Positions 33,160 to 62,700 of a DNA stretch of 64,000 nucleotides are shown here, piece after piece. Source of the DNA: Candidatus Wirthbacteria bacterium (GTDB lineage Bacteria; Patescibacteriota; CG2-30-54-11). The stretch lies in contig CAISZI010000008.1 of the NCBI GenBank assembly GCA_903889905.1, positions 40,766 through 104,765 on the forward strand, read 5' to 3'. Positions within the stretch are counted from its first letter, which is position 1. Every line of letters starts with the position of its first letter. The position numbers and the translations under genes were made by a program. The notes beneath the pieces are model-generated. The model saw only the letters and a list, made by a program, of their open reading frames with translations, was not told the origin of the DNA and did not search any database.

Positions 33160-33245
33160 ACTTCTCCCCCCCCCAGCGGGGGAGGATTAAAGGAGAGGGG
33201 ATTCCCTCTCTCTAGCTCTCCCCCAGCGGGGGAGAGGAAATGAGG
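33160..33245. repeat. two REP-like hairpins downstream of the pilus operon
   Basis: CTCCCCCCC-CAGC-GGGGGAG and CTCTCCCCCAGCGGGGGAGAG (9-bp stem, AGC loop). Confidence 0.7.
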
Positions 33246-33311
33246 GTTGGCCATTTCCCACGCATCTGCTAGAATCCTTCTGTTGAAGCCCATATCACGG
33301 AAGGAATTTCC

Positions 33312-41200: not shown

Positions 41201-44200
41201 GGTGGTGGTGGTTGCCTGCAGCACACCGTTAATGAAGATCGTGACAGTCTGCGCTGTTGCGTTGTAGGTGCCGACGACATGATACCAGTTGCCGGTAACC
41301 AGACCGGCGGACGAGGTGGTGACATAATTGCTGGAACTTCCGACATAAAAACGGATATCGGTGGCGTATTGGGCCAGCTGATAATCCGTATTGGCACCAT
41401 CCCACTTGCCCGCAATATCAAATTGGGTCGCTGCTGTGACGGACGAGGGTTTGATCCAGGCGGAGACCGTCAGATTACTTGAAAGACTCACCGTGCTTGG
41501 ATAATTAACGACCAATTGGGGCCGATTCCCGGATGTAGCCCCGTCACTGGAAGTAAAATTTTTATAAGTGCTTGTAGATCCTTCGTTACCGATCAGCCAA
41601 AGACCGTAATTGGTCGCTGATCCGGCTACCCAGGCGGCGACATCGGCCTTAACGTCCCAATTGAGAAACCCGGTAACGTATGTAGCACTTGTGCTGGAAG
41701 TGGGCGAAACGGCAAAGTCAGTCCCGCTCAAGCCACCGGCAGTATTGGATCCCCATTGGACATAGTTACCGGTATTATTGTTTCTGTAATTCCAGGTAGA
41801 ACCGTCGGCAGCACCGGGCGGGGCAACATTTTGACTGCCCTCCCACCACTGGGTTAGGCCCCGATACACTCCGATGTTTTCAGTGGTGCCGCCACCACCC
41901 TCGTTATAGAGCGTCAATGTTGATGAGCTGATCGTGGCATTGCTGGGTATTGAGGAAACATCGAATTTAATTAAAGTACGAAAGAGTGAAGTGGTCGCAC
42001 CACGGCCAACTTCAATGTTAATGGCAGTCCCTTGGTTTGAACCCGGTGCGACCACACCATAAAGATACGTATCCAATCCTGAAGCAGCATCGGGCTGAAG
42101 CGTCAGAGATTGCGACTGATACATGTACTGCGAACTGGCTGCTGTGAAACTGCCGGCATTACTGAATTTACCACTGCTGAACGCAGGAGTATTGACGCTG
42201 GTCAGGGTGTTACCGTTGCCCGAGGAATCATTGGCATTGCCAGAACTCTCATCCATCTTCCAATAACCAACCAACCCGTTGCTCAGTGCCATCGAATTTT
42301 GGGCATTTGAGCCAATCGAAACACCTGTACCATCATCGGCATTACCGCCGTGAGCATTGAAATCTTGTTTGACCTGAATTGCCGTCCGACCATAGTTATA
42401 AATTTTAACTTCATCCATAAAACCACCAAAATATCCGGTCATTGAGGCCATCTTCACACCCAAACCCAACGATAGGCTATTGGTTGGGATTGAACTTGGC
42501 ACTGTCCCAGTCCCATCTGCTTTGCCATTGACATAAAACGTAACTGTCGTCCCAGACTTAACGACTGCCAGATGGTACCACTGACTGGCACTCAATACCG
42601 TATTACCATTAATCGACGTTGGATGAATATATAACGACAATTGCCCGCTGCTATTTAAAAACATCGAATAACCATTGGAGTTATCTTTTTGAATTAAATA
42701 TTGGGTAATGCCGGTGACTGTTATAAATTTGAACCAGCCCTCCCAAGTAGCATCGCCTGTCAGATTTATAGCCGCTGTTGACGGAACGCTGGCATACTGA
42801 GTGCTGCCGTCAAATTTGAGGCACTTGCCACTGACACACATGTCTTCGGCTGCCCAGGTGGGATCAACTGGCAAGGATGTATCGCTACCGCCCAAATACC
42901 CGTTATTACCCATGAGGTAGGTACTGGCTGCAGGGCTGGCGGCCCCCGATGGTACGCCACTAGAATAAACCGTCACACGTCCAACACTGCCTGCGCCTCC
43001 TGTCGCACCACCACCACCACCACCACCACCCCAGCCGTTACAGCCACCATTACCTGCTGCATAACCGCCACCACCACCACCGCCATTGGCAGCGCCAGCA
43101 GGCCCGGCTGTTCCCGTACCGCAACCATCGTCACCATGCCCGCCCGCACCGCCTGCAGCACCGGTTCCGGCCGTACCACCAGAGGCAGTCACCAAACTGG
43201 AACCCAACGTTGCTAGACCAGTCTTGATCAGGACACTACCACCTGCACCGCCACCGCCACTACCTCCGCCGCCGCCGCCCGCACCAATCAACCAAGTCGA
43301 GCCAGCACCCGCCGTTCCTGCCGTTCCATTGGAACCATTTCCCCCATTGCTTCGAATCGCACCACTAGTAGTGACGATTGGAGCAAATATTGTCAGAATC
43401 CCGCCACCTGTCCCACCGCCACCACCGGCTCCACCGGTACCTGGGCTTGCAAGACCATTACCATTTGCTCCCGTTCCGCCTGTCGCTCCATTACTACCTA
43501 GATACAATTTCTGTAAGTCTGAGCTCCCGTATGTAGAGACATTTTTAAAATTATCGGACCCCACTCCCGCAGGACCGGGAGTGCCAATATCCGCATAATA
43601 TCCACCATTCCCATTGCCACTGGTACTAATCGCTCCTCCATTACCAGCATTGGGCGGAGCCGTACAAGGCATTTGCAGACAACTGCTCGTGCCACCCGCA
43701 CCACCAGTCAACGTCACCGCGCCACTACCACCGCCACCACCGGAATTGGCACCAGCACTGCCTGTTGTACTGCTATTTCCTCCCACCACACCATCACCGG
43801 AGCCACCTATTGCGCCGGTACTTGTATTGTTCATCTGAGCATACGCGCCACCGCCGCCACCACCACCACCTTTGGCTGGCATAGATCCGACTGCACCATA
43901 AGATCCCCCTTGACCGCCACCGCCGCCACCACCGCCAGGAAAAGTAGATGACCCGGAACCACCACCAGCACTACCACCGGGCACACCCATCACAACAGGA
44001 TAGGTCGCCGTATAGCCTTTGGCATTCATATCAATTGTTCCGGAAGCAGTCACTGTACCGGTGGCCCGAAAAAAAAGCACGCCATTTTTGGTCCCGTTAA
44101 ACGCATCCACGGTCAACGTTGCACCGCCCGAAACAGTTACTGTTCCATAATTCGGTACGCGCTGCACCATAATTTGCTGAGTGGTGCCATCATAAGCATT

Positions 44201-46108: not shown

Positions 46109-46300
46109 CGGTTTTGGGCTTGGTTTGGGTGGAATGGTGGTTATCGAATTAGTATAGGGGAAATTTGTGGAAATAAGATGGATAGGGTGTCCGGATCTAA
46201 CCCCTCCTAACCTCCCCTTGCTCCAAGGGGAGGAATCGAACCCGCACTTTCACTTTCTGTGCTCCTCCCCTTAAGCTAAGGGGAGGCTGGGAAGGGTTAT
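45590..46300. repeat. cluster of G/C-rich REP-like palindromic hairpins (CCTCCCC-loop-GGGGAGG family) in the 5' end of giant gene 1 and the gene-1/gene-2 spacer
   Basis: CCTCCCCTTACTCTAAGGGGAGG (45612-45634), CTCCCTTACTCTAAGGGAGG, CTCCCCTTAAAGTAAGGGGAG, CCTCCCCTTGCTCCAAGGGGAGG, CTCCCCTTAAGCTAAGGGGAGG. Confidence 0.8.
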
Positions 46301-46306
46301 GCATCC

Positions 46307-49300
46307 CTATTTCAGGTTTACCACGGCGTTTTGATTATACAATATTTGGACCTGGGTGGGAGTGAGGGAATAATTATAAAGTCGGACATCGTCGATCTGG
46401 CCGGTGAAGGGGAAATCGGTGCCACCAATATAGGTGGTCGCCGCTGAGGATGGCAACGTGGCCGGAATGCTCGTCGTGGTATAAACTTTACGAATAGCAT
46501 CAACATAAATCGCAATAGACGTGGATGGAGTATAAATCGCAACCAAATGATGCCAGCCACCATCGGCAACCGTCACGGCATTGTCATACACTTGCGTTGA
46601 CCCAAAGAACACGGCCGGCACTTTGCCATTCACACCTGCGCCCAAACCAATCGACATCATATAGGTGCCTGACCCCTTGGCAATTACCCGTCCTGCATTG
46701 GCCGACGTTTTGACCCAGGTAGACATGGTCATCGGGCCGGTGAAATCCAGTCCGCTGGGGTTGCCCAAGGTTACGACATCATCCGTCCCATCAAAGTTCA
46801 AACTACCATTGTACTTGCCACTGCGCCCACTGTACCAGGCCGTGGAAGCATTGGTCGCGCACTTCCCTACCGACGTCTGACTGCCACCGGCCCCACTCCA
46901 GGTGCCGCTCAGGTTATTGCCGCTCGAATCATGCAGAGTTGCGTTTTGGCATTCATCAAACTTCCACCACGCCACGGGCAGGCCACGGTTGTAATCCCAG
47001 GCGATCTGGGCAGGAGTGCGGGCGTAATTGTAGAGGCGTAAATCGTCGATCTTGCCATGAAACATGTTTGCAGCAGCGACATCAGTGCCAATGCGCGGCA
47101 CAAAATTCGGCGTTGTATTGTCAAAGGCAACGCTCGCAGTACTTTGGGAATAATTCACGCCATTTAGATAAATATGATGGACATCCGCAACTGAGTCATA
47201 GACAACGGCCACGTGGTACCAGGTATTGGCTGACAGCGCACGCGAATCCGATGCCCAGGTAACATATCCACCGGCATCCGGGGCGCGTCCGCCGATGCCA
47301 AGCATGTTGGATGCATTGACCATAAACTGGAATCGATTGGATCCATCGACATTGATCGGTTCCGTGAAAATCGGATTGATAACACCCAATTGTGTGAGAT
47401 AGATCCATCCTTCTATTGTAACTTGTGTCAATCCTTTGATTGAATTCCCATTATTGGTCGTCAGATAATTATTTGTCCCATTAAAATTTCCCGCTCCCCC
47501 TATCTTCCCCGGTTTCCACTGACTTCCCAATGATCCCTGCCATGCTCCGTTAAAGGCATTCCCACTGGTATCCGTCGCCGTACTTCCTGTCCCCTCATCA
47601 AACTTCCACTCTGCCACCGGCGGATTACACGAACTGGCATCTCCCGGCACGCAGTAAAGCGATGCATCCGACCGGCTGGCATTGCCCGACGAGTCGACGG
47701 TATTGGCGCCCACCACTGTGGCTGAACCGTGATTGAAGTCGAGCAGCACTTCGTCGGGGGTGATGGCGTAGGTATAGACTTTGACTTCATCGATGGGGCC
47801 ACTGAAGTAGTGTGTACTATTATCATTACCAATACGGAGAGCATCGGCATTAGTGATATTGGGCCAGGTGCCGTGCGTGGTGAGGGTGGTGGCGACTTCT
47901 TTGCCATCGACAAACAGCCGCACTTTGTCCGTACTTTGGTCAGCAACCATGGCGTAATAATGCCAGTTGCCATCGGCCACATCGGCCGTGCTCACCGCGA
48001 TCCGATCGACGGTACCGTTTGCCTGAGTGAACGACCCAACCAGAAACTGCCCCGCAGCCGAACAGTCGCTGTTGCCACAAATCATCAGGCTGTATTGCGG
48101 GTAATTGGCGCTGTTCTGGCGCTTGGTGACAATCGGCCCAGTCTGATCACTGTTTGCGGGTTTGGCCCAGGCGCTCACGGTCCAGCTCGCACCTGCGCCG
48201 GGCTGCAGGCTGGCGGCATCGGGAACATTGACATAGGCGCTGCTGCCATTAAATGTGAGCGCTTTGCCGAATTGCCCAGCCGTCGTCCAGGTGGCGCTAA
48301 CAATGCTACCGTCGTGGCCTTTGGCTTCGGAGTCATGCGCCGTGCTGCCCGTGCCTTCATCAAATTTCCAGTAGGCGGCCATCATCTTGGTACCCACGGC
48401 AGGATGATCGGCAGCCTGGGTGGATTCGATTTGTTTTTGGGTCAAGGCATAGTTGTAGATGCGGATGTCATCCAAGGCACCAACAAAAGCATGACTATTC
48501 AAGCCAATATCCCAAGTACCAATTTGGAAATTCTCAGCAGTATTAAATACACTTGTAGGTAAACCTGATTGGGTGGAATCTAAAATACCATTGACATAAA
48601 AATCAACTGTCCCAGAGCTAGCATGATAAACCGCCGAGACATAAGTCCAAGCACCGGCTACAATAGATGAATTAGATGCTACTTGAACTGCATTCGTACC
48701 ATCATTACTGATTGTGAATAACAGCTTGCCCGCGCCATTTCCAATACCAAAACGATAACCACGGTTTCCGACAGTGTTATAAAATTTAGAAACCATGCCG
48801 CGACTATAAGTCGCATCAATATTGGCCACTTTTTCCCACAGGCTGATCGTGAAGTCTGACCTCATTTGCAGCGGCGTGGTGTTTCCCTCATCCACCCAGG
48901 TATTCGTACCAGAGAAATTTAATGCATTGCTGATCTTACCAGCCGGTAGCCAAGTTGCCCCGGTGATGGTTCCGGTCGATCCTTTGCCTGATGAATCGGC
49001 AGTGCTAGTTCCGCTCCCCTCATCCATCTTCCACCAACCCACCGGCCCCGGCGCCCAGGTGTAGAGCTGCTGGACTTCCAGGGCGGTGAGGGCGCGGTTG
49101 TAGATGCGGACGTCGTCTTGCGAGCCATTCCACCAGTTCTCCCACATGGTGTTAGCAAGTTTGAAATGTGGCAACGTAATATTACCTGTCAATGTTGTTG
49201 GGGCCGACGCATCAAGCTTGCCATCGATATAAATCGACATGATTTTGAGTCGTTGCACCGAAACCACCACATGATGCCACGCTCCATCTCGAACACCCGT

Positions 49301-52300
49301 TACCGAACACAAGCCGGTCTCGCGATTTGTACCATTGGCAAAATTAAAATAAAGTTTATCGGTTCCGCTGCACGCCCAACCTGACGCAATGATCAAACCA
49401 TAACCAGAGGTAAAGGACCCGCCGCTATTGTTGGAAGCATCGATAATATCTGCTGCGGTTGACGTCTTAATCCAGGCAGCCAGTGTAAAATTGCTCGCGC
49501 CCGGGGAAATATTGGCATAAGTCGTCACATCGGCATGATCATCAGCACCATCAAAGACACAACCTCCCCCATATTTCCCCGCTCCTGTGCAATTCATCCC
49601 CGTCGTGTTGGCACCATAATGCGTCGTCCCATTATTTCCCGCCCCCGACGCATCCACCAGCGTCTGGTTGTCACCACTGACGTTATCATCCATTTTCCAA
49701 TACCCCACCAGCCCATCCACCAGCGCCGTGTAATTGTTGGCAAGCCGGCTGAGGGCGAAGCCACCGTTGGTGCTCGCGCCGCTGCGGTTATTGTAGTTGA
49801 GGTTGACGATCGTGGCGGAGATCGCGCTGTTGTAGACTTTGACGTCGTCCATGAACCCGTTCAAATAGGCTGCGCCTACCCGTCCCAGCACGATGTTGGG
49901 CGAATCCATGCCCGTGCCCGTTGTAACCACCACATACTGCCACTGATAAAGTGCAAGTTGCGAGCTGACCTTGCCATTGACATAAACCGTGGGCGAATTA
50001 AATCCGGCTCCTACCTGAATCACACCCGACCCGTTGGTTGTTAGCGTGGCGGTGCCGGCAGTGCCATCGAGCGCTCCCAGTGGCGCGGGCCAAACGGTGG
50101 GACGTACCCAGAATGAGAGTGTCTGTACTCCCGTGATCGCCGAGTTGATATTGACGTATTGCGACGATGCTGCTGTAAATTTAAGACACTTGCCACTCAT
50201 GCACATATCCTCGGTCACCCAGGTTGGATCATCGGCGGCGACGGATGAATTGGCGCCCAGAGTGCCACTGTTGGCATTGAACGCCGAATCATGCACCACC
50301 TGGCCGCTGCCTTCATCCAATTTCCAGTAACCCACCACCGGCCCGGGCATGGGAAAACCCCAGTTGGTGTTGTGACCTTCGTCGGTGAGATCGAGCCCGG
50401 AGATGTCGATCACATTGACGTTGATGTTGTTGGAATATTTGACATTGAGGTAATTAAAATCGCGCGTGCTCTGCGGGTCAAAGCGCCACTGCGTATTGGC
50501 GGCCGACGAATGCAGGCTGAGGCGGTTGACGGTGGAATTACCCTTGAGCGTCGTCGTCCCGAGGATGACTTGCGTTTTGGTGGCGTTACCCGGGAAAACC
50601 AATGTCTGCGGTGATGTCGCGATTTTGCTCAAACTGTTGAACGTCGTACTGCCGACAATGGTCTGGTCAGTACCAGTTAAATGCACCGTGCCACCGTTGT
50701 GGTTAAAGGTGCCGTTGTTGGTCCAGTTGCCCGCCACGTTGAAGGTGCCCGGCGAGGTAAACCCACCACTATTAATACTAAAATCCTTGGCCACCGTGAT
50801 TGTACCCAGCGCACCGGGCACGACCGTATCACTGGCATCGGTCATGTCGATCGAGAGGTTGCTGTAAGACCAGTTCTGGATGTTGTAGTTATCGGCGGCA
50901 CTATCTCCGTCACCCTTATACGACACAGTCGAGCCACTGCTAAGCGTTGGCGCCGTGGGTGTTTCTGACCCAACCAGCCGCAAAGTTCCGGTAGCCTGAA
51001 CAGTAAAGGTCGAGCCACAGACAAAAGCCTGACCATTGATGTCCAAAGTCCCTTGTTGCAACGTACAGGTCTGGCCCGAGACCGTGAGTGCATTGTTGAG
51101 CGTCAACGTTCCACCGGCTTTGTTGACATTAAAAATCGAGGCAAAGGTACCATTCGTTTTGGTGAAACCTTGCGCGCCGGTGCCGTTAAAATTAATCGTC
51201 AAATTGGCGCCGCCCAGGTTGTTGGCCGACGACTCGCTGAAATTACCCGCTACATTCAAGATCATGCCGCCGACCGGGTTGGAAATCGTACCAGCCGAAT
51301 AAGTAAAATCCGTCGTCGTAAAGCCCTGCGTCAAAGTCAGGGCAGAAGCGGCTGACTTGCTCCAGGCGTTGTAAGTCACATTGGCAGCATCCAAAGTCTG
51401 GGTACCACCACTGCCGTTCAGGATCAAGGATATTGGCGTGGTAAAAGTCGACGCACCATTAATGGTCAGGTTGCCAAAAATAGTAAAGGTTGGGTTGGCA
51501 GCTGTCGTCAATGTCTTGCCGGAATTGTTGGTAAGATGACCAAAACTGTACCCATACGCCGCCGCCGTGTAAGTGGTCAATGACGAAAGTGTGGTCGTGC
51601 CATTGTTGACATAATCGCCGTTCATGGCCCACGTCGTGACATTGCCAGACAAGGTGCCGGTGTTGGTAAAAATCCCGCCCACGTTGGCTGTAAGCGTGCC
51701 GGTCCCGACAGTAATCGTGCCATTGTTGGTGAGTCCGTAGCTGCAATTACTATTGGCACAATACGTGTTAACGAGCGTCAGCGTCGGTGTATTACCCAGT
51801 GGCAACGTGGTGCCGCTGGCCACGGTCATGAGCGCATTGGTGCCAAAGCTGGACATGGAACGGTTGATACTGACCGGCGTATTAAAAGTGACGGTGGGCG
51901 CATCGATCGTACTATTGTAAGAGCTGCTGCCATTCAGATTGAGCGTGACATTGGAGGTCGGAAAACCGGTATTGGGACTGGTGATGATGAAACTATCGGC
52001 CACATTGAAGGTCACACCGGCGGCGGCCGTAAAGGTTTTGCTGGCATTGTTGGTAAAACTGCCCTGACCATGGAAATACGCACTGGAGCTAAAAGTCGCC
52101 AGTGACGCCAACGTCACCGTGCCGTTATTGACAAAGTCTCCACTGTGCGACCACGCCGTGGCACTGCCGGAGATCGTGCCTGCATTGGTAAAAAAGCCGC
52201 TCACGTTGGAGGTAAAAGTACCTGTCCCGACGGTAATCGTGCCGTTGTTGGTCAAATCGTACTGGCATACTCCCATGCAACCGTTATTGACCACCGTAAT

Positions 52301-55144
52301 GGTCGGGGCATTGCCCAGGGGCAAGGTCGTGCCACTCGCAATCGTCATGCCGATCTGAACACTGATGGAACCAAAGACGCGATTAATCCCCACCGGTGCA
52401 TTGAAGGTCACACTGGAGGCGTCAATCGTAGAATTCCCCTGATAAGTACCGTTTAGATTGAGATTGACATTGGCAGCCGGAAAACCGGTATTGGGATTGT
52501 TGATAAGAAAACTGCTGGCGATATTGAATGTCGGTCCAGCGGCAGCGGTAAAAGTCTTGTTGGCATTATTGGTAAAAGCGCCGGTACCGTTGAAATAAGT
52601 ACTCGACGAATAAGTAGCCAGCGACGCCAAAGTCACGGTGCCGTTGTTAACAAAATCCCCATTCATGTTCCAGGTGGTGGCGGAACCGGAAATCGTCCCG
52701 TTGTTGGTCAACACGGCACCGACATTGCTCGTGAACGTACCTGTGCCAACCGTGATCGTACCGTTGTTGGTCAGGAAATACTGGCACCAACTCGAGGTAC
52801 AATAAGTATTCACCAGCGTGAGGGTCGCAGTATTGCCGAGCGGCAAAGTTGTCCCGTTGGCCACGGTCAACACCGGCGAATCGGCAAAACTACTGATCGA
52901 ACGACTGATCGTCACCAGATTAAAAGTGATTCCCGCGGCATCCACCGAACTACTGCCGACGACTGTCCCGTCAAACGCCACCGTACCGCCATTGGCGCTA
53001 AAGGTGGGTGCACCGGATTTGGTAAAACTGGCGGTGATATGCATGGTGCCGGAGGTATTGGTAAAAGTCCCGCTCGACAGGGTAAAACTGCCGGCATTGC
53101 CGCCCGACCCGATGTTGATCGCGCCACTGCCCCCCGCAAAGGTGCCCGCGCCAAAGACAAAGTTCGACGTCCCCACCGTCACCTGGTAACTGCCTGATTG
53201 GGTAAAAGTGCCACTGTAACTGCTGCCAAAACTCAGTCCCGCCACGTTGACATCCGCGCCCAGTGTCACTGATCCATTATGCGTGCTGGTAAAAACTGCC
53301 GTGTCACCGGATTGCGGATAGGAACCGCTGCAGCTGCCCCAGTTGCCGGCCGTGGCAAAAGTTCCGGTCGTGTCATTGAGCCAGGCGCAGGCCGCGTCCG
53401 AGGCGATCTGCCACGACCGCGCTTCGATAAAAAAAAGCGAACCGGTCGCCGAACCGGTCAAAAATTTGAGCGGCCCCACCAGATAAAATTCTGGCGATAC
53501 TTCGGGCGCCTTGTACTGGTAACCAATCGTTAGTACCGTGTTCGCATGCATGTCGACGGTCCAGTCGATGTGTTGCACATCACCGACTCTGCGCACCGTA
53601 GCGTAAGCTGTTGTCGATGCCAAAGGCGTTATCACAAAGTTCGCTGGCACGGTTTCTTCGATAACTCCCTGAAACGACTGATTGGCCGTGATGCGCAACG
53701 TGACCGGCAGCGGATTAAAGGGGAACAAACGTGTGGCAGCGATGCGTTCAACGGTAAGTGGTACACTGTCTTGGACGACGATGGTATCTGTAATCGTATA
53801 GGGCCCTTTGTCAGTCCGCGCCAGCAACGTGAGTTGATAATCGCCGCTATCGCCCAGTTTGTAGGTCGCCTCAAAGTCTGGCCTGGTATTGATACCATAA
53901 ACAAGGCACTCGGGGTTACGCACAATTTTGCCATTGGCCGTCGACAGTTCATCCACCTGACCATTGTGGCTAATACGCAAAAACAAGGCTGCATTGCAAT
54001 TCATATCCCCACGCTCATCGAGCACGGCAAAGGACAATTTGGCCATCTGGTTGGGTGTGTAAATGGACTGGTTGGCATTCATGGCCAGCACACCCCAGGT
54101 AAAATCCTGGGTAATTTGTTTGTGGTTACCGTTTTGGATGACGTCAACGGCCAGCCGATATTTGCCGGGCTTAAACGTATTCCCCTGTTTGGGCACAACG
54201 GCAAAGGAATAGGTATGATCCACGAGCGGCGACACCTGCACGCCAACGATGGCTGACTCAGTCCTGGCTTGATTCAAATCCGCATTGTCGCGCACGTAAT
54301 AGACTTTGGCATCCACCGTGGTCTGGCTGTCGGTGATTGTCGATGATACCGGTGCTACATCGGCGGCATAAGCTGTGGCAATCAGCGACGAAGTGGCCTT
54401 GGCCGGCAATTTGGCACTGGCGTCATAGGCCATGACAAACACCACCGCTTCACTGGCGCTGAAGTTAGTCTTGGGTTTGAGCAGCGTCTGCTGATCGTTT
54501 GCCACGCTAAACAGCGCGGCTGAGGAAACCGCAGTATTCCTGGATGAGGCAAAAGTCTGCGGTTTGGAGACAAAATAACTCGCCCCCAACCCCGCCAGCA
54601 GAACAATAAAAATCGCCCCCAGCGCGACCCGACGAGCATGTACAAAACGGCCAAAAACGGATTTAAGAGCGGGCAGGTGGATGGGAGTGGTGAGGAGGGG
54701 AATCACCCCCCTCATGGCCTCCCCCCGCTGCTGCAAGGGGAGGGATAAAATCTGCCCCGCCCCTGCCTTAGCAGGCTTTAGTCCCCCTTGCGGGGGGGAG
54801 GGCAGGGAGGGTGTAGTTTTGACCGCCACTGTCTCAACGGGCTTCATTCCCCCTTGCGGAAAGGAAGGTTGGGAAGGGGTAGTCTTATTAAACGTCACCA
54901 ATCTTCCCCTCCCCCCTTGGGGGAGGGCTGGGGAAAGGGGTCTTGCAGAAATCCCCTCTCTCTGTCTCTCCCCCGGGGGGGGAGAGGAAAGTTTGTTCCT
55001 CAGATCAACTGTCCTCGTCACTGGCATACTTCGCCCAATCCCATAACCTGTTTGCGGTCGCGGGGTATCGGTTGCATCGTCAAATTGTAGTTTTTGTCTG
55101 ATCTTGGCCATGGGTTCCTGTTTGATCTGACGGTATTGTAGCAC
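46307..55144 (-). CDS. giant membrane-anchored surface protein (2945 aa). Layout: N-terminal tail, TM anchor, beta-sandwich-like domains, beta-helix-like tandem repeats (autotransporter-associated type), about 9 LamG-like domains.
   Basis: TM helix VALGAIFIVLLAGLGASYFV. Three near-identical ~160-aa tandem repeats (NGTITVGTGTFTSNV...GTISGSATTW..GDFVNNGTVTLASL...). The C-terminal half is LamG-like repeats ending ...QIDDVRLYNYSLT.... A plausible internal start is the ATG at 54715. Confidence 0.9.
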   Translation of the reverse strand: MLQYRQIKQEPMAKIRQKLQFDDATDTPRPQTGYGIGRSMPVTRTVDLRNKLSSPPPGERQREGISARPLSPALPQGGRGRLVTFNKTTPSQPSFPQGGMKPVETVAVKTTPSLPSPPQGGLKPAKAGAGQILSLPLQQRGEAMRGVIPLLTTPIHLPALKSVFGRFVHARRVALGAIFIVLLAGLGASYFVSKPQTFASSRNTAVSSAALFSVANDQQTLLKPKTNFSASEAVVFVMAYDASAKLPAKATSSLIATAYAADVAPVSSTITDSQTTVDAKVYYVRDNADLNQARTESAIVGVQVSPLVDHTYSFAVVPKQGNTFKPGKYRLAVDVIQNGNHKQITQDFTWGVLAMNANQSIYTPNQMAKLSFAVLDERGDMNCNAALFLRISHNGQVDELSTANGKIVRNPECLVYGINTRPDFEATYKLGDSGDYQLTLLARTDKGPYTITDTIVVQDSVPLTVERIAATRLFPFNPLPVTLRITANQSFQGVIEETVPANFVITPLASTTAYATVRRVGDVQHIDWTVDMHANTVLTIGYQYKAPEVSPEFYLVGPLKFLTGSATGSLFFIEARSWQIASDAACAWLNDTTGTFATAGNWGSCSGSYPQSGDTAVFTSTHNGSVTLGADVNVAGLSFGSSYSGTFTQSGSYQVTVGTSNFVFGAGTFAGGSGAINIGSGGNAGSFTLSSGTFTNTSGTMHITASFTKSGAPTFSANGGTVAFDGTVVGSSSVDAAGITFNLVTISRSISSFADSPVLTVANGTTLPLGNTATLTLVNTYCTSSWCQYFLTNNGTITVGTGTFTSNVGAVLTNNGTISGSATTWNMNGDFVNNGTVTLASLATYSSSTYFNGTGAFTNNANKTFTAAAGPTFNIASSFLINNPNTGFPAANVNLNLNGTYQGNSTIDASSVTFNAPVGINRVFGSISVQIGMTIASGTTLPLGNAPTITVVNNGCMGVCQYDLTNNGTITVGTGTFTSNVSGFFTNAGTISGSATAWSHSGDFVNNGTVTLASLATFSSSAYFHGQGSFTNNASKTFTAAAGVTFNVADSFIITSPNTGFPTSNVTLNLNGSSSYNSTIDAPTVTFNTPVSINRSMSSFGTNALMTVASGTTLPLGNTPTLTLVNTYCANSNCSYGLTNNGTITVGTGTLTANVGGIFTNTGTLSGNVTTWAMNGDYVNNGTTTLSSLTTYTAAAYGYSFGHLTNNSGKTLTTAANPTFTIFGNLTINGASTFTTPISLILNGSGGTQTLDAANVTYNAWSKSAASALTLTQGFTTTDFTYSAGTISNPVGGMILNVAGNFSESSANNLGGANLTINFNGTGAQGFTKTNGTFASIFNVNKAGGTLTLNNALTVSGQTCTLQQGTLDINGQAFVCGSTFTVQATGTLRLVGSETPTAPTLSSGSTVSYKGDGDSAADNYNIQNWSYSNLSIDMTDASDTVVPGALGTITVAKDFSINSGGFTSPGTFNVAGNWTNNGTFNHNGGTVHLTGTDQTIVGSTTFNSLSKIATSPQTLVFPGNATKTQVILGTTTLKGNSTVNRLSLHSSAANTQWRFDPQSTRDFNYLNVKYSNNINVNVIDISGLDLTDEGHNTNWGFPMPGPVVGYWKLDEGSGQVVHDSAFNANSGTLGANSSVAADDPTWVTEDMCMSGKCLKFTAASSQYVNINSAITGVQTLSFWVRPTVWPAPLGALDGTAGTATLTTNGSGVIQVGAGFNSPTVYVNGKVSSQLALYQWQYVVVTTGTGMDSPNIVLGRVGAAYLNGFMDDVKVYNSAISATIVNLNYNNRSGASTNGGFALSRLANNYTALVDGLVGYWKMDDNVSGDNQTLVDASGAGNNGTTHYGANTTGMNCTGAGKYGGGCVFDGADDHADVTTYANISPGASNFTLAAWIKTSTAADIIDASNNSGGSFTSGYGLIIASGWACSGTDKLYFNFANGTNRETGLCSVTGVRDGAWHHVVVSVQRLKIMSIYIDGKLDASAPTTLTGNITLPHFKLANTMWENWWNGSQDDVRIYNRALTALEVQQLYTWAPGPVGWWKMDEGSGTSTADSSGKGSTGTITGATWLPAGKISNALNFSGTNTWVDEGNTTPLQMRSDFTISLWEKVANIDATYSRGMVSKFYNTVGNRGYRFGIGNGAGKLLFTISNDGTNAVQVASNSSIVAGAWTYVSAVYHASSGTVDFYVNGILDSTQSGLPTSVFNTAENFQIGTWDIGLNSHAFVGALDDIRIYNYALTQKQIESTQAADHPAVGTKMMAAYWKFDEGTGSTAHDSEAKGHDGSIVSATWTTAGQFGKALTFNGSSAYVNVPDAASLQPGAGASWTVSAWAKPANSDQTGPIVTKRQNSANYPQYSLMICGNSDCSAAGQFLVGSFTQANGTVDRIAVSTADVADGNWHYYAMVADQSTDKVRLFVDGKEVATTLTTHGTWPNITNADALRIGNDNSTHYFSGPIDEVKVYTYAITPDEVLLDFNHGSATVVGANTVDSSGNASRSDASLYCVPGDASSCNPPVAEWKFDEGTGSTATDTSGNAFNGAWQGSLGSQWKPGKIGGAGNFNGTNNYLTTNNGNSIKGLTQVTIEGWIYLTQLGVINPIFTEPINVDGSNRFQFMVNASNMLGIGGRAPDAGGYVTWASDSRALSANTWYHVAVVYDSVADVHHIYLNGVNYSQSTASVAFDNTTPNFVPRIGTDVAAANMFHGKIDDLRLYNYARTPAQIAWDYNRGLPVAWWKFDECQNATLHDSSGNNLSGTWSGAGGSQTSVGKCATNASTAWYSGRSGKYNGSLNFDGTDDVVTLGNPSGLDFTGPMTMSTWVKTSANAGRVIAKGSGTYMMSIGLGAGVNGKVPAVFFGSTQVYDNAVTVADGGWHHLVAIYTPSTSIAIYVDAIRKVYTTTSIPATLPSSAATTYIGGTDFPFTGQIDDVRLYNYSLTPTQVQILYNQNAVVNLK
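51330..52850 (-). repeat. three tandem ~500-bp intragenic repeats (about 80% identity) encoding the beta-helix-like repeat units of giant gene 2
   Basis: DNA and protein repeat units match, for example ...LTNNGTITVGTGTFTSNV...GTISGSATTW.NGDFVNNGTVTLASLAT.SSS.YF.G.G.FTNNA.KTFTAAAG.TFN... three times. Confidence 0.8.
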
Positions 55145-55320
55145 CTCAAAGCAGTGGCAAGCTACAGGAATGCAACTACCCCCTACCTAGCCTCCCCCCG
55201 CTGCTGCAGGGGGAGGGATATGATCTTCACCGCCCCTGTCTTAGCGGGGGAGGATGTAGGAGGGGGTAGGTTTGTCCGCCCCTGACCATTCTGATGGACG
55301 GGGGAGGGCAGCGAGGGGGT
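54700..55320. repeat. array of at least 8 G/C-rich REP-like hairpins, in the 5' end of giant gene 2 and the spacer toward the ATPase gene
   Basis: CCTCCCCCCGCTGCTGCAAGGGGAGG, CCCCCTTGCGGGGGGGAGG, CCCCCTTGCGGAAAGG, CCTCCCCCCTTGGGGGAGG, TCTCCCCCGGGGGGGGAGAGG, CCTCCCCCCGCTGCTGCAGGGGGAGG. Confidence 0.8.
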
Positions 55321-55323
55321 AAT

Positions 55324-56451
55324 TCAGACCACAAACCCCAACCAATTCTCCTTGCTCACCACCTCCCAACTTGCATCCGGATAGGTCCGGCGCCACAGTT
55401 TGGGTTCTTTGGATTTTTTGATGCCCCACTTGAATTCATAACCATGTAATTTGCCATCGTAGTCTTCGACGTAGTCCACTTCCTGCTGGGTGTAGGTGCG
55501 CCAGAAGTAGGTATTAGCATGGTGCAGTAAATAATGATTGCGCTTGAGGCGCTCGGTGAACAGGTAATTTTCCCACAACTGGCCGACATCATTACGCTGG
55601 TCAAGCGGATTGAAATTATTGATCAACGCGTTACGGACACCATTGTCAAAAAAATAAAAACGGGAACTTTTACTAATTTCCTTGCGCAGGTTGCGGCTAA
55701 AACCAGTAACACGCCGGATGACAAACACTTTTTCCAGAAGATCCAGATAACGTTCAATCGTGCCCAGGTTCAATGTTAGCGAGGATGCCAACTCCTTGAG
55801 CGAAACCTCATGGCCAATCTGAAACGCAACCAGGCGCAGTAGATCCAGCAATTTGTCGGCGTGGCGAATATCCTGGAGAGCAAGCAAATCCCGAAACAGG
55901 TAATTGTCGACGACCGAACCCAGAATTCCCCGCTTGTCGCCCATATCCACCGCCGTCACCACGTCAGGAAAACCACCAAAAATAAGCCGCTCGGGGAGAC
56001 GCTCTGTTGTCTGCATGAAATTTTCGGTCTTGCCAATCTCCATTTGCGCCAATGGATACAGATAATACATCCACTTGCGGCCCACCAGTGGTTCACCCAC
56101 CTGATTGGCTAGTTCAAAAGAGGATGAGCCAGTCGCCATGACGCGGATACCGGGAAAGCTATCCACGATAATTTTGAGATTCAGCCCTATCTCATCAATG
56201 CGTTGCGCCTCATCAATCAAAAGCACATCGGCGTTACCAATATTATTTTTCAATATTTCAAAACTACGCGAGCTGAGCCAGCGTGAATTCACATCATCGC
56301 CATTGACCCGAAGGACTTTGCCCTCAATCTGCGACTCGATATGTTTCATCAGCGTCGTTTTGCCCGTACGCCGTGGACCATAGAGAACAACAACTTTGTT
56401 GGGCGTCAGATGTGACAAAATAGTAGACGTGAGGGCTCGCTCAATGTACAT
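55324..56451 (-). CDS. AAA+ superfamily ATPase (AAA_14 + DUF4143 family, COG1373)
   Basis: Walker A LYGPRRTGKTT, Walker B ...VLLIDEAQ..., and a C-terminal DUF4143-like region with DNA-binding characteristics. Confidence 0.85.
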   Translation of the reverse strand: MYIERALTSTILSHLTPNKVVVLYGPRRTGKTTLMKHIESQIEGKVLRVNGDDVNSRWLSSRSFEILKNNIGNADVLLIDEAQRIDEIGLNLKIIVDSFPGIRVMATGSSSFELANQVGEPLVGRKWMYYLYPLAQMEIGKTENFMQTTERLPERLIFGGFPDVVTAVDMGDKRGILGSVVDNYLFRDLLALQDIRHADKLLDLLRLVAFQIGHEVSLKELASSLTLNLGTIERYLDLLEKVFVIRRVTGFSRNLRKEISKSSRFYFFDNGVRNALINNFNPLDQRNDVGQLWENYLFTERLKRNHYLLHHANTYFWRTYTQQEVDYVEDYDGKLHGYEFKWGIKKSKEPKLWRRTYPDASWEVVSKENWLGFVV

Positions 56452-56728: not shown

Positions 56729-59700
56729 TTATCTGAACTCCACCGCCGAACTCCCATTGGCCAGGGTCTGCACCTGCGTCGCGGTCAGGGCGTAGTTGTA
56801 GATGCGGACGTCGTCGATTTGGCCATTGTAATAAAGTCCTGAATAAGATCGTCTACCAATTTCAGTTGTGGCAGTACTGTAATCTATCACCGCACCTGCG
56901 TCATTATCCCCAATTACAAGTGTCTGACTGATGCCATTAATATAAATATGAATCCCCGACGCATTGCCTGATCCGTCATATGTCATGACAACATGATTCC
57001 ATGAGTTCAGAATCAACCCGTTTGACACCGTGACATAGTATTTATCAGTTCCCGAAGAAGCGAGAACTGCAGAAAGTCCATCGTCGTCAAATATAGTGAA
57101 ATTCCAACCATTAAATGTAGAGGCACTCTGGTTTTGGATTATAGCGGAATAATTTGTCATACCTGTGATTGGTTTGATCCAAGCCGAAGCAGAAAAAGAA
57201 CTAGTTGTCTGAAATGATAATGCGGTTTTGTTGGTTCCAGCATTTAAATAATCACTATTCCCACTATTAAACGCCAGACTCCCATTAATCTTCCCACTCG
57301 CCCCGTTCCCCCACGCCGTCGCTGCTGTGGTGCAAGTCCCGACCGCTGTCCCGCCCATCCATGTTCCGTTCAATCCATTGCCACTCCGATCATGCAACAC
57401 CGTACCCGTACACTCGTCGAAATCCCAGTACGCCACTGGCGCGCCACGGTTGTAGTCCCAGGCAATCTGTGCAGGCGAGAGTGTATAAGTATAAATCCTG
57501 ACTTGATCTATCAGTCCATTAAATGCATTGGTATAGCTTGCACCATTTTTGAGTGCACCGAGATAAAGCGGTCTACTGTTATTGTTTAACCCTGCAAAAG
57601 TTGTCGCCACTTCGTTTTTGCCATCAATATAGCCACTTACCGCCGTTCCACTGATCGTAATCGCCACATAATGCCACTTGCCATCCTTGAGGTTGGTAGT
57701 CGAAAGAGTAACGCTGTTGTTGGAACCAAAATACAGTGTCAGATATCCGGTTGCATTGGCAACATACATTCCATAGTCATAGATCGGTGATAGAGCCATA
57801 TCGCCTTTGCCAACGATGAAACTTCCGCCAGCCGATGTTTTGATCCAGGCCGAATAAGTCATCTGAGCTGACGACGCAAGTGCTGCCGGTGTCGAAAGAT
57901 CAACATGTTTTGTGGCATTAAAATTCCCAGCATTCCCAAACTTGCCTGGCTTCCATGAATTCCCCCCCTGCCACGTCCCATTATTACCGCCACCACTTGA
58001 ATCATTGACCGTCCCGCCGCTGCCCTCATCAAATTTCCACTCCCCCACCGGCGGGTTACAAGTGCTGCTATCCCCAGGCACGCAATACGCCCGGCTGGCA
58101 GAGTTGTCCGGAGCTCCGGTCGAAGTCGTGCCACTAGCGCCCATGGCGGTCAGGGAACCGTGGTTGAAGTCGACGATGACGTCGTCGGAGGTCAGATTGT
58201 AGTTATAAATTTTGGTTTCATCGATAGTGCCAGCCATGCGATTCGCTGTGCCACCATCCTCGGAACCGGTCTCCAGATTGGCATTGGCGGCGCTATCGTA
58301 GATGGCAGCTGGGATCGCAGTGGTGTTCTGGCCGTTCTGTTTGGAACCGACGTAAACCGTGAGTGACGTACTCGGAACATAAACACCCGTGACGTAATAC
58401 CAGGTGCCCGTGGCAAGCGTCGTCGTACCCGTTGCGGTTTTGACATTACCTGCGGTGCCGTCCGAACTGATATCAAAGTTCACCTTGCCGCTCGCGTCGG
58501 TATAGAGGCGGTATGAACGGTAGTTGGTCGCACCTGACGTCTTCCATTTGGCCATGATGTCATGCGCCGCGTTGTTGGTCGTAAGGTTGACCCAGCCCGA
58601 TAGGGTGATCGCACCGGTTTGACGCAAGATCGAGTTATTGCCATGGGTGACATAAGCTGTGGTGCCGTTGAAGCTTAGTGCTTTGCCAAATTTGCCGCTA
58701 TTGGTCCAGCTCGGCAGTGTGGCGCCGGATAAGGTGCCATTCAGCACAGAACCCGAGTTGCCGGAATTGTTGATCGTACCGCCAAACCCTTCGTCCATGT
58801 CCCAGTGGCCAATCATCATTTTGGTCCCCACACCGGGGTGGTTGTAATTCATGTCTTCGACAATTTGTTCAGGGGTGCGGGCGTAGTTGTAAATTATCAA
58901 GTTATCTATAGAACCGTTAAAAAAAGCACTTCTTTTTCCAATTGCCAAGTTGCCCGCATTTGCCAATGACAAGGCTGAAGACCATGTATCCTGCTGGACA
59001 CCATTGAAGTAAGTATAAAAATTATTCCCATTGCGCTCGACAGTACGGTAAACCCACTGTCCAAGACTATATGGACCAATACTGCGTGCACTGGCAATGT
59101 CCCAGCCTGAACCGTTAGAACTTGCCCAGAATCGTGAATAATCGCAAGTAAAATCCTGGCCCGCGACAAAACCGACATAGCCACCGACATTCGCCGCATC
59201 TGAAAGTAGTACCGCCTGGTCAAAAGAACAACTCTTTTTATTTTCCCACCATGAAATAGTAAAACCACCTGTCCCAAAATTAAATACCGAGCTACTGGGA
59301 ACCTGGACAAAATTATCCGTCCCATTGAAATTCCCCGCATTACTGATCTTCCCCACTCTCCACTGATTCCCCAATGTCCCCGCCCATGTCCCCGTATTCC
59401 CAAAACCGCTGCTGTCATTGACCTTGGCGCCACTGGCTTCATCAAACTTCCACCACCCCACCGGTCCCGGCGCGAAGTTATAAAGTTTCTGAACATCGTC
59501 GGCACTGAGAACGCGGTTATAAACACGCACCTCATCAATGGTACCCGGGAACAAATTGAGCAGTGCACTGGCAGAATCCGAATACGACGCCCCGATATAG
59601 AAATTATGGTAATACCCGTTGAGTGTGCGGGCGCCTGAGTTTTCCAGTAAACCATTGAGATAAAGTTTGGCGGTCGTGCCATCGAATGTTCCTACCACGT

Positions 59701-62700
59701 GATACCAGGTATTGGCCACGATCGTCGTTGCGGACTTCATGTCATTGCCGTTGCCGCAGCCGGTGGGGTCAAGGTTCCAGTCAACTTTGCTGTCATTGGT
59801 AATGCCAATACGATAGCCATAAAGGCAGCTCGAGACGTCCTGTCCCATCATGCCTGCAATTGCATACAAATTGTTGACACTAGTGGGTTTGACCCAGGCT
59901 GAAACCGTAATCGTCGTTGGTTTGAGCAGTGACTGATCACCCATGCTGACATTATCATTGGTTCCATTAAAACCACCACCTTTGCCGTATTTTCCCACGG
60001 TGTAATGGTTTGCGCCTGCTCCTGCCCAAGTGCCGGTAAGCCCATTTCCCGATGCATCAGCCAGTGATCCCGAAGATTCATCCATTTTCCAATACCCCAC
60101 CAATCCATCGGTCAGTGCCGGGTCATTGGCATTCGACGAACCCAGTTTGATGCCACTACCATCAGCTGAAAGACTGCCGCGGGCATTGAAATCGTTTTTG
60201 ACCTGCGCCAAGGTGCGCGGGTAACTAAACAGCCGGATCTCATCCATAAACCCGGCAAAATATCCGCCATTGACCCGGCCCAGCATAACATTGGAGGCGA
60301 TGACGGCGGTCGACGAAGTGACCGTCACCAGTTGCCATTTGTTCAAGGTGAGTTGCGAACTAACCACATTATTGACATAAATCGTGGGAGAGACAAAACC
60401 TGCTCCGGCGACAATCACATTGGATCCATTGGTCGTAAGATTGGCGTCACCGGTGGCACCGTTGAGGACTAGCAGGCTGGTCGAGGCTGCGGTTGGTTTG
60501 ACCCAGAATGAAACGGATTTGATGCCACTCAAAGCCGTTGCAACATTGATATACTGGGACGAAACCGCAGTAAACTGCAAACATTTGCCACTCACGCACA
60601 TGTCCTCGGTCGCCCAGGTCGGGTCATTCGCGGCGACGGCATCAGTCGCACCCAGAGTTCCAGTTTGTCCATTGGGCAAAGTGGCAAAAGTTGGTGTCGT
60701 GGTACCAGAAATGGCAATATTGGAATAAACCGCCACACGACCGACACTGCCAGCACCACCCGATGCTCCACCACCGCCGCCGCCACCGGCGTACAAATAA
60801 GTACAGCAGTCCCACATCCAGACATAACCATGCCCGCCACCGCCACCATCTGCAGTCCCGCCACTCCCTGGTGTGATCGTATAGGATTGCCCATAATCAT
60901 GGGTATTGACGCCGCTGCCACTACCGCCGATGGCACCAGTGCCGGCAGTTCCACCCGCTGCGGTAACGATACCTGCGCCCAATGTGACTGCTGCCGACTT
61001 GATGACGAGACTGCCACCGGCACCACCGCCACCACCTCCTCCGCCACCACCACCACCGGCAGGCCCACCAGCGCCGGAACCAGCAGTTCCATTAGAGCCC
61101 ACCGCACCATTGCTGCGAATCGCTCCGCTGGTGGTGATAGAACTTGCATAAATCGCTACAATCCCCCCACCGGCCCCTCCTGCTCCACCCGCCTGTCCCA
61201 CGCCAGCACTTCCACCTTCCGAACCGCCACTGCCTCCAGCAGCACCTGATGCTCCCTGGCTACCAAAATACAATCTCGTCAGATTTGCCGCACCATAGGT
61301 AGCATTATTTTTGAAACGGCTGGATCCACTACCTGGTGTTGGTGTGACAAAATCAGTATAGCTACCGCCCGCTCCGTTACCACTGGTGGCAATTGAACCA
61401 CCCGCGCCACCCACAGAAAAAACACCGCTCCCTCCCCCACTGGCTCCACCGGCAGCAGTAGCGGCACCACTGCCACCACCCGGCCCTGGGCCAAAAATAG
61501 TACCGGGGACTTCATAAGTATCATAACCATACCCATCATCACCCGATCCAGCAATCCCATCGCCACTCCCACCACTACCTCCTGTAGAGTCACCACCACT
61601 CTCGCCAATATCCGCACCACCGCCACCGCCGCCACCACCTTTGGTCGGCATGGCGCCAGCGGTTGCATAGGCACCCCCCTGACCGCCGCCACCACCACCG
61701 CCACCCGGCATATGGGAACCACCCGACCCGCCACCAGCACTGCCGCCGGGAATTGCGAGTAAACTCGGATTGGCCGCTGAATAACCTTTGCCATTCATAT
61801 CAATTGTTCCCGTCGCCGTCACGGCACCGGTGGCGCGAAAAAAAAGCACACCGCCTTTGGTGCCATTAAACGCATCAACAGTTAGCGTCGCTCCGCCGGT
61901 AACGCTGACGGTGGTGTAATTCGGTACGCGCTGCACTATGATCTTCTGGGAAATACCATCATAGCGGTAATCAAAAGGGTCCGTTACATTGATGTCGGTA
62001 TTGTTGGTGCCACTGAAACTTGCAATGCGTCTGGTTTCGTATAACCCGACGGAACTGTAATCCGTTGCCGTCCCCTGTAGATCCATGACCAGAATTTCAT
62101 CACCGACCGCAAGCCCAAGTGTATTGGGATTGGAGGAAGTTACCGTGATTTTGGTGTCACCAACACTAGTCAAAGTCGTTGAACTGAAATTCACGGCATC
62201 GGCCTTGGCTCTCGCCACGCAGGTGTTGGTCGCGGCCGCAGTCAACGTGATCGTGCCACTCGGGACACTGCAAGCTCCGTCAGCGCCATTGCCATAATCA
62301 GGGTTGGCCTTGCCGCCTACGGCATCATTCAGAATCTGGCCAGTGCCTTCATCCAGCTTCCAGTAAACTACCGGGCTCGATGACAGTTCCTCTGTTCCGC
62401 TCACCGCAACGCCTGGGAGTGACGATGCTGTTTTCCTGACAAATATCCAATCCACAGAAGTGGCAAAGGCCAACGTATTGCCAAATTCCAATTCCAGGCT
62501 ACCCGTCGGCACATTGGTCGTGGGATTGGAAAGCTGTGCGCCATTTTGATAGAACTTGGAACCAGCGGCACTGTAACGGTTGATGCGGTAATTCTGCATG
62601 GCAGAGCGATCCGTGACCGTAAGCGCGCCGCTGGTAGTGGCGGTACTGCTGGCTTTGGAACGGGTCACGACATTGGTCAAGGTACTCGTGTTGGTCAGGA

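Follow-up and report, generated by a model that had tools for sequence, protein, structure and literature searches.

Bacterial interspersed mosaic elements (BIMEs) of E. coli and REPINs, on which Bertels and Rainey are said to have worked, are built from repetitive extragenic palindromic (REP) units; they occur as singletons, as head-to-head dimers forming a single long hairpin, and in mixed tandem clusters. Y1/HUH transposases, such as the REP-associated tyrosine transposases (RAYTs) and TnpA of the IS200/IS605 type, recognise ends on single-stranded DNA. REPs bear a conserved GTAG (or CGTC) at one end of the unit, and the GTAG-tagged ones are imperfect palindromes of 20-40 nt (PMC3733652). 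Both intragenic REPs and Rickettsia palindromic elements (RPEs) have been documented (PMC3733652, PMC10969869). RPEs (Ogata et al., 2000, 2002, via PMC10969869) are described as AT-rich palindromes of about 100-150 bp known only from Rickettsia and spread evenly, ending in CGTC according to Di Nocera's analysis, and falling into several subfamilies that lie between genes or in frame within them, where they are tolerated as an extra peptide. Bacterial MITEs, short for miniature inverted-repeat transposable elements (Correia/NEMIS, RUP, ERIC), and the small dispersed repeats of cyanobacteria are small, non-autonomous, hairpin-forming and multi-copy, and they can make in-frame fusions or alter the stability or translation of neighboring mRNA (PMC10969869 in part). 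Here we describe a family of GC-rich palindromic repeats in a stretch of 64,000 nucleotides (hereafter the window) from Candidatus Wirthbacteria bacterium (contig CAISZI010000008.1, positions 40,766 to 104,765), where they form a dense hairpin array at the 5' end of a giant gene, giant gene 2, whose product is a LamG-rich surface protein with five Laminin_G_3 domains in a domain scan.

Reading both strands, we found at least nine GC-rich hairpins in about 620 bp (window 54700-55325), in agreement with the initial annotation, which had counted at least eight in about 600 bp. The folding energy, which it had proposed as a check, bears this out: the 651-nt region yields -289 kcal/mol, compared with -250.6 +/- 7.1 in dinucleotide shuffles (z = -5.4; 0 of 20 shuffles equal). 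The arm CCTCCCCC occurs 16 times in the window where 2.46 occurrences are expected, and half of these (8/16) fall within 54718-55307. Rather than independent, generic GC hairpins, these are members of a single repeat family that share sequence, and the stems, in which generic hairpins would have shown no conservation, are conserved among copies. Of the two hairpins said to share a loop, the one at 54718 was placed correctly and the other lies at 55191-55216 and not at 55195. Their loop decamer, CGCTGCTGCA, is found exactly again at 63770-63779, near the 63765 given earlier, with one further chance occurrence in the window at 47069. It is not the loop as such that recurs but a whole element of about 100 nt: there are three copies of one doublet, which we call the B doublet (at 54700, 55174, and 63745), and the decamer therefore merely marks B doublets. 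The array had also been taken to run through the spacer and the first ~140 codons of the 2945-aa open reading frame (ORF), where it would read as PQGG-containing repeats. That reading holds, since the ORF encodes ALPQGGRG, SFPQGGMK, and SPPQGGLK across 54716-54998, but the continuity does not: the array consists of two blocks, 54700-54998 and 55174-55325, with 175 nt of unique sequence containing ATG 55111 between them. The label "BIME-like" is fair for the architecture, a mosaic of single, head-to-head and tandemly duplicated REP-like units.

A unit starts with a C-rich 5' tail (YTAC-CCCCTCC-nnn), and a CCTCCCC...GGGGAGG stem-loop comes next. When a pair of units stands head-to-head with the tails outward, a long hairpin of about 100 nt results, the doublet; single units occur too. 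A fuzzy search of the window for the tail-plus-arm motif returned 19 sites; Markov simulations gave 0-6. In all, about 30 units are present in the 64 kb, roughly 15 of them within N-terminal segments of the ORFs of giant genes 1-3 (segments that make up ~2.5% of the window). Five doublets are mutually alignable (B1, 54696-54826; B2, 55170-55280; B3, 63741-63856; A1, 46192-46306; A2, 45605-45719), the three B doublets over about 100 nt, and B1 and B2 share an 83-nt repeat (54693-54775 and 55166-55248) that is 81% identical. A repeat search further revealed a 64-nt tandem pair with a period of 66 nt, a 31-nt G-rich tail present three times, and long inverted repeats that link the outer tails. 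The outer tails of the doublets are inverted repeats of each other (TCATAACCCC...GGGGTTATGA; CTACCCCC...GGGGGTAG). Two subfamilies can be told apart: A, TAACCCCTCC-nnn-CCTCCCCTTR-nnn-YAAGGGGAGG, in and beside giant gene 1, and B, CTACCCCCTCCCTGCCCTCCCCC..., at giant genes 2 and 3. An nhmmer profile of the A type retrieves A units only, and the B-type profile is too short for sensitivity. The palindromic element is found in spacers and in ORFs, on either strand, and in different frames in genes 2 and 3.

All five doublets and three composite hairpins fold better than shuffles (z values in Table 1). Single units taken individually do not, because any shuffled combination of C-runs and G-runs folds well. 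Pairing is 100% in eight hairpins of 10 bp that belong to the A and related types, a count biased by the selection of the set for seven perfect pairs; five of the ten pairs are changed on both sides, and G-U pairs are absent altogether. Two-sided changes without G-U pairs point to a palindrome maintained at the DNA level rather than to an RNA structure. Covariation within the A family was uninformative, as its stems hardly vary and the additional matches are mostly the same palindromes on the other strand.

How does this family compare with the described ones? Like GTAG-tagged REPs, the units are imperfect palindromes with a terminal tetranucleotide and are in part intragenic, and the head-to-head doublets and the mosaic cluster with its 66-nt tandem duplicate recall BIMEs and REPINs. 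The terminal tetranucleotide is GTAG in only four of ten B units, GTAA in two, and GTGA, GTCT, and GCGT in one each, and A units end in GTTA. It abuts the stem in REPs, whereas here a C-rich tail intervenes and it sits 12-16 nt away. REPs are mostly extragenic, while about half of the window units lie inside ORFs; and the genome of a REP system encodes a RAYT, usually with REPs at its flanks, whereas none was seen within the 64-kb window. Membership of the REPs sensu stricto is thus not established. The YTAC 12-16 nt 5' of the hairpin and the absent G-T pairs would recall ends recognised by Y1/HUH transposases. By analogy, the elements seem to work like RPEs: both are short palindromes that occur between genes and in frame within them and form several subfamilies, and copies of the A type lie in LeuRS, TruB, MnmA, and UvrC of metagenome contigs (see below). 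Our units differ from RPEs in that they measure 35-50 nt (about 100 nt as doublets), are extremely GC-rich, end in YTAC/TAAC, accumulate in N-terminal tails of the giant paralogues, and come from an uncultured lineage near Chloroflexota and Patescibacteria and from many metagenomes. Judging from the opposite base composition, sequence homology with the Rickettsia families is unlikely. A palindrome in frame in a genuine gene, with host domain on both sides, is found for the A type in five enzymes; for giant genes 1 and 3 the same follows from start-codon logic and paralogue alignment, and for gene 2 we infer it. With MITEs and the cyanobacterial repeats the units share their small size, hairpins, and copy number, and they would be likewise non-autonomous, but typical MITEs are far longer, and here no pair of terminal inverted repeats with a target-site duplication, and no parent insertion sequence, has been demonstrated.

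Relatives of these elements are widespread in uncultured bacteria. Groundwater, lake, sediment, and soil metagenomes yielded the A-type 22-mer TAACCCCTCCNNNCCTCCCCTT on at least 120 contigs, whose GC contents span 0.33-0.65, and IMG/VR yielded it on 24 viral contigs. Its commonest form elsewhere is a single long hairpin of 48-50 nt, TAACCCCTCC-nnn-CCTCCCCTTA-loop-TAAGGGGAGG-nnn-GGTGGGGTTA, and many metagenomic copies run on into a second hairpin, CCCCCTCTTAAG.TAAGAGGGGG, of the type seen in the window at 56651 and 56686. Most of these copies are intergenic; among the matches listed, 13 of 130 lie in long open frames. We examined five of the 13, and in each the element is in frame with a Pfam match on both sides: in LeuRS, within the editing domain (HNPSPPPLTLRGGDETVTPLKVRGARGVM); in TruB (HNPSPPPLTLRGGEAQ); in UvrC, within the endonuclease domain; in MnmA; and in an amidohydrolase. 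Giant gene 1 has an A peptide matching that of LeuRS and TruB, read in the same frame (HNPSKSPLTLRGD, 46033-46067). Two ideas about the role of the A element were rejected: its TAA is not enriched over other frames as the stop codon of the upstream gene, and GGGGTTATG is no mark of gene starts, for the enriched TTATG (32/150) is the terminal sequence of the element (TCA|TAA...TTA|TGA) and does not correspond to ORF starts. We found no published description of the A-type family by sequence, peptide or keyword in a searchable literature that is incomplete.

Giant gene 2 belongs to a co-directional cluster in the order giant gene 3, AAA_14/DUF4143 ATPase gene, giant gene 2, giant gene 1. With residues 1-330 of the gene-1 product as query, exhaustive HMMER searching revealed a fourth giant paralogue (P0172; DUF2341/LamG, 2821 aa) on the same 121,946-nt contig beyond the window, and the cluster therefore reaches past the window. 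The elements are almost certainly translated in genes 1 and 3, as their start codons indicate. Gene 1 has no ATG, GTG or TTG from codon 97 (45820) to the middle of the membrane helix, and gene 3 has no start codon between codon 147 (GTG 63556) and the membrane anchor. Translation of the hairpins at 45624 and 45678, and of the three units at 63400-63545, is therefore unavoidable if a signal anchor is made. In addition, the gene model given for gene 1 in the database (P0125), with its start at ATG 45907, takes in the A2 doublet. The tail of gene 3 aligns in frame with that of P0172 (SSPFASLYRKKKKEPKPPVGAHRNAPSPAP with TSPFATLYAKKKKEP--PVGAYRNTPSPAPAH; SLIKEGSGT with SLIKEGTGT): identity is about 73% over the unique segment, as high as in the DUF2341 domain, and all indels are multiples of three. 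Such in-frame conservation argues for protein-level constraint on a tail with hairpin-derived segments. The P0172 tail itself bears peptides of the hairpin type (PPLFVKRGQGE, QPPALREGAG, and TPPRLGGDKGEG), and other members of the family have N-terminal tails of 50-230 aa before the anchor.

For gene 2, which the initial annotation had left between a regulatory leader and hairpins taken up as coding sequence, we consider it likely, from the sequence features that follow, that translation starts at ATG 55111 (or GTG 55144). Its pre-anchor segment has no stop in the gene frame, against 5, 6, 4, 2, and 7 in the other five frames; the corresponding counts are 0 against 10, 10, 8, 4, and 9 for gene 1, and 0 against 10, 9, 5, 7, and 2 for gene 3. 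The ATG at 54715, which had been pointed out as an internal start just ahead of the membrane helix, does exist, 29 codons before it, and together with GTG 54706 it is the only start codon between the element and the anchor. Both lie within the right-hand tail of B1. At the homologous position the spacer copy has a stop in frame (GCC ATG AGG GGG in B1, GCT AGG TAG GGG in B2), and the B2 tail provides the TAG at 55187-55189 that bounds the gene-2 ORF upstream. That gene 2 uses exclusively a downstream start is rather improbable, and dual initiation is possible.

Taken together, the array is quite likely a cluster of non-autonomous palindromic elements of mobile DNA, of the REP or small-MITE type, lying partly in the spacer and partly in frame in a gene-2 tail that is probably translated. 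It would have arisen through one 66-nt tandem duplication and a succession of insertions, preferentially adjacent to existing copies or inside them. The block at 55174-55325 sits in the ATPase/gene-2 spacer and that at 54700-54998 in the 5'-proximal part of gene 2, which would encode a low-constraint tail from the unique N-terminus (ATG 55111) to the membrane anchor and in which the copies are open in the gene frame. Because basic residues (HARR) precede the helix, the tail should be cytoplasmic by the positive-inside rule. Its units would be translated into linker peptides rich in Pro, Gly, and Ser (PQGG), as seen for the paralogues and presumed for gene 2. The elements may need no host function and may persist where sequence is unconstrained, in spacers and in disordered cytoplasmic tails. 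Mobilisation would probably take place on single-stranded DNA, by a Y1/HUH transposase (of the RAYT or IS200/IS605 TnpA type) encoded elsewhere. It is possible that the spacer hairpins act as REP-like mRNA stabilisers or as partial terminators or attenuators of the ATPase/gene-2 transcript, and that the hairpin 54718-54743 masks the GGAGG resembling a Shine-Dalgarno (SD) sequence before the internal ATG and GTG.

Several observations weigh against this interpretation. No target-site duplication, empty site or parent insertion sequence was identified for the units. No Y1 transposase or RAYT (PF01797 type) was found among the window ORFs of at least 150 aa scanned singly, nor any RAYT in the best 25 families listed for 118 window ORFs of at least 100 aa, a search that covers 64 kb of the genome only; the RAYT-like protein that had been proposed for gel-shift assays was thus not recovered. 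The B subfamily is known only from this window and looks private: its 18-mer CCTCCCCCCGCTGCTGCA gave 61 single, chance-like matches in 185,579 species genomes (the source genome not among them) and one match in viral contigs, and a 30-mer of the B doublet gave none in JGI metagenomes. The likeness of the gene-2 N-terminus to its paralogues is weak (..QF..DT.. and ..DLR.. shared with genes 3 and 1; shuffle p = 0.01, 0.017, and 0.066), and the search for orthologues of the gene-2 and gene-3 N-termini found only distant homologues without long tails. Codon usage is not gene-like in any of the three tails, the gene-2 extension scoring -0.09 bits/codon against a 5% quantile of -0.05 for real genes, on a measure that also fails the certainly coding membrane-helix segment. 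Finally, translation and transposition are both predictions from the sequence.

The codon usage is also among the points that would suit a regulatory leader, in which gene 2 starts at ATG 54715 or GTG 54706 and the array is a structured 5' untranslated or intercistronic region controlling mRNA stability or translation, for example by sequestering a GGAGG SD in the hairpin 54718-54743. The strong SD-like motif GGGGGGAGG lies 2 nt before the ATG and 11 nt before the GTG, in the 3' arm (GGGGGAGG) of the stable first hairpin of B1, and the distant homologues (P0001-P0004) begin only a few residues ahead of the membrane helix. No promoter-like site of the sigma-70 type was found in 55112-55323, and a long structured intercistronic RNA running from the ATPase gene into gene 2 is therefore plausible; a near-consensus site, TTTACA-17-TATAAT, lies ahead of the ATPase gene at 56512-56484. 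However, the 132-143 codons upstream of the internal starts are open in the gene frame only (Poisson p ~0.01), and both starts belong to a copy of the mobile element. A spacing of 2 nt is too short for an SD, those of rpoD, ftsH, and yebC in the window being 6-7 nt. Genes 1 and 3 have like hairpins without any downstream start, the tail of gene 3 is conserved as protein, and like elements occur within housekeeping enzymes in other contigs, which argues against a dedicated leader. We therefore regard a leader as unlikely, and the earlier alternative is settled mostly in favor of uptake as coding sequence, with the SD-like GGAGG and the codon usage left on the side of a leader for gene 2 alone.

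It is very improbable that the PQGG repeats are a selected, functional cytoplasmic repeat domain with hairpin potential as its by-product. Three PQGG motifs do recur with a period of 20-22 residues in a stop-free tail, but the DNA element is also present in the non-coding spacers 55174-55325 and 46196-46302, either strand is used, and gene 3 reads it in a different frame; peptides differ from copy to copy, and what is conserved is the DNA palindrome, with its compensatory changes and its lack of G-U pairs. A guide-RNA or defence array, CRISPR-like or of the TIGR type and processed into small RNAs, is hardly credible: tandem hairpins and a lineage near Patescibacteria would suit it, for TIGR arrays are known from that group (PMC12045711), built of 36-nt units in which two repeats of 8-12 nt alternate, with spacers of 9 nt, beside a Nop-domain Tas gene, but the units here are 50-66 nt and irregularly spaced, their stems are conserved rather than their spacers varying, the neighbor is an AAA_14/DUF4143 ATPase, and copies are scattered, some inside enzymes. 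A TIGR-Tas array was rejected on unit size, spacing, and neighboring gene alike. A known Rfam RNA was rejected as well, since only tRNAs reach the gathering score in the window, and 45400-64000 shows only sub-threshold likeness to miRNA precursors, as generic long hairpins do.

Table 1. Hairpins, repeat units, and genes of the giant-gene region, other repeat copies in the window, and A-type loci elsewhere (fold z against shuffles).
Feature	Position	Strand	Details
Hairpin CCTCCCC-ccgctgctgcaa-GGGGAGG	54718-54743		CGCTGCTGCA loop
Hairpin CCTGC-ctta-GCAGG	54762-54775		
Hairpin CCCCC-ttgc-GGGGG	54783-54796		
Degenerate hairpin	~54845-54866		
Hairpin CCCTCCCCC-ctt-GGGGGAGGG	54907-54927		
Hairpin CTCTCCCCC-ggg-GGGGGAGAG	54966-54986		
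Hairpin CCTCCCCC-cgctgctgca-GGGGGAGG	55191-55216		CGCTGCTGCA loop
Weak hairpin	~55230-55250		
Hairpin	55277-55307		
B1 doublet with extra inner hairpin	54700..54822		123 nt = 41 codons; hairpins 54718-54743, 54762-54775, 54783-54796; z = -3.5
Single decayed B unit	54823..54888		66-nt tandem duplicate of B1 right half (75% identical); encodes TTPSQPSFPQGGMKPVETVAV
Two opposed B-type units	54889..54998		100-nt long hairpin 54897-54996; hairpins 54907-54927, 54966-54986; z = -4.0; encodes LSSPPPGERQREGISARPLSPALPQGGRGR in gene-2 frame
B2, head-to-head B doublet	55174..55272		one 99-nt long hairpin in non-coding spacer; contains hairpin 55191-55216; z = -5.6
Single B-type unit	55273..55325		hairpin ~55277-55307; G-rich tail ...GAGGGGGTAAT; abuts ATPase TGA 55324-55326
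B3, third B doublet	63745..63851		gene-3 N-terminal tail, frame different from B1; z = -6.0
Three decayed units SLPPSLIKEGSG, PLPPLTLIGG, LPPLWLKGGLGE	63400..63545		gene-3 tail, downstream of last possible start GTG 63556
A2 doublet NPSQPSLTLREGG...IPPLRVRGGKEG	45609..45715		inside gene 1; translated under any canonical start; z = -8.2
A-type unit with second hairpin HNPSKSPLTLRGDFQKSSLRVRED	45990..46067		near gene-1 5' end; z = -4.2 (45990-46062)
A1 doublet	46196..46302		spacer, gene-2 stop to gene-1 start; z = -6.6
Doublet of CCCCCTCTTA/TAAGAGGGGG hairpin type	56640..56720		gene-3 stop to ATPase promoter; z = -7.0
Related hairpin cluster CTCCCCC..GGGGGAG, CTCTCCCCCagcGGGGGAGAG	33150..33260		intergenic, upstream of yebC
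Isolated B-like unit ..CTCCCTGCCCTCCCCCaggtGGGAGGGG	3715..3745		spacer
Giant gene 1	38285..46108	co-directional, downstream of gene 2	DUF2341 + LamG
Giant gene 2	46307..55144	minus	ORF of 2945 aa from GTG 55144; 2934 aa from in-frame ATG 55111
Signal-anchor / transmembrane helix VALGAIFIVLLAGLGASYFV of gene 2	54569..54628	minus	HARR basic residues before helix
Unique 38-codon N-terminus MAKIRQKLQFDDATDTPRPQTGYGIGRSMPVTRTVDLRNK of gene 2	54997..55111	minus	z = -0.3, no special structure
Unique non-repeat spacer upstream of ATG 55111	55112..55173	minus	weak SD-like AGGA 55116-55119; alternative start GTG 55144
AAA_14/DUF4143 ATPase gene	55324..56451	co-directional, upstream of gene 2	domain scan; TGA stop 55324-55326
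Giant gene 3	56729..63994	co-directional with gene 2	DUF2341 + LamG
A-type loci, metagenome contigs	L064-L183		e.g. L112:166-2673, L155:4711-5553, L130:2924-4081, L152:4157-5554, L122:6889-8208
A-type loci, viral contigs	L184-L207		

Other features of the window deserve mention. The ATPase gene (in 55324-56729) has a lower GC content (0.46) and its own promoter-like site and is flanked by palindromic doublets (at 56640-56720 and 55174-55325); it resembles a cassette that was inserted among the giant genes. Upstream of the tRNA genes Leu-CAG, Leu-GAG, and Phe-GAA, at a distance of 7-10 nt, lies a near-identical AT-rich hairpin of 10-11 bp, CTACTTTTCTT-actca-AAGAAAAGTAG (34219-34245, 34499-34523, and 35072-35098). 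With its CTAC...GTAG ends it forms a separate small repeat family, which could act as a signal for processing or as part of a promoter, or else be REP-like. The dnaG gene is broken by one in-frame TAG (12431-12433, minus strand; ..ALTSEQM*LAKRFVTKLL..) that separates an N-terminal part (12431..13315) from a Toprim/DnaB-binding part (11540..12400), the two sharing one frame. A sequencing error, a pseudogene, and readthrough or recoding are all possible explanations. On the minus strand at 14937-15661, a PIN-like ORF (14937..15335) overlaps an upstream ORF of 109 aa (15332..15661), and from its sequence the pair looks like a toxin-antitoxin module.

The lineage is deep-branching, as judged from PolA (16814-19753), and its type IV pilus/type II secretion system genes, several giant LamG proteins, and tRNA cluster resemble those of Patescibacteria and Chloroflexota relatives. 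The PolA of this contig is 56%, 54%, and 52% identical to its nearest proteins among 5.8 billion, and about 45% identical to those of Chloroflexota and Patescibacteria. No such hairpins were found in the contigs of the two nearest PolA relatives (56% and 54%; L062 and L063).

For annotation, these observations mean that the hairpins are no ground for shifting the start of gene 2 downstream, and the same hairpins account for the odd low-complexity N-termini across the giant genes of the cluster. They add a case outside Rickettsia of palindromic selfish DNA tolerated in coding sequence, from a deep-branching uncultured lineage. Intragenic palindromes as such were already known; the newer point, as far as sequence matches indicate, is a widespread A-type unit in metagenomes, viral contigs, and essential enzymes. 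More tentatively, the elements may belong to a superfamily of GC-rich "coding palindromes" of 35-50 nt, with the consensus TCATAACCCCTCC-nnn-CCTCCCCTTA..TAAGGGGAGG-nnn-GGTGGGGTTATGA, that crosses lineages, probably spreading horizontally and possibly borne by phages, and that colonises spacers and housekeeping enzymes of many uncultured bacteria. A private derivative of it would here have supplied the larger share of the cytoplasmic N-terminal tails in four of the giant surface proteins, an instance of new protein sequence made by the accretion of mobile hairpins. Should the wide occurrence of the A subfamily hold true, it would be a tractable system for the cross-lineage spread of such elements and may reveal how they add new disordered segments to proteins. 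Many "PLxLRGG"-type peptides in the proteomes of metagenome-assembled genomes would then be scars of mobile elements.

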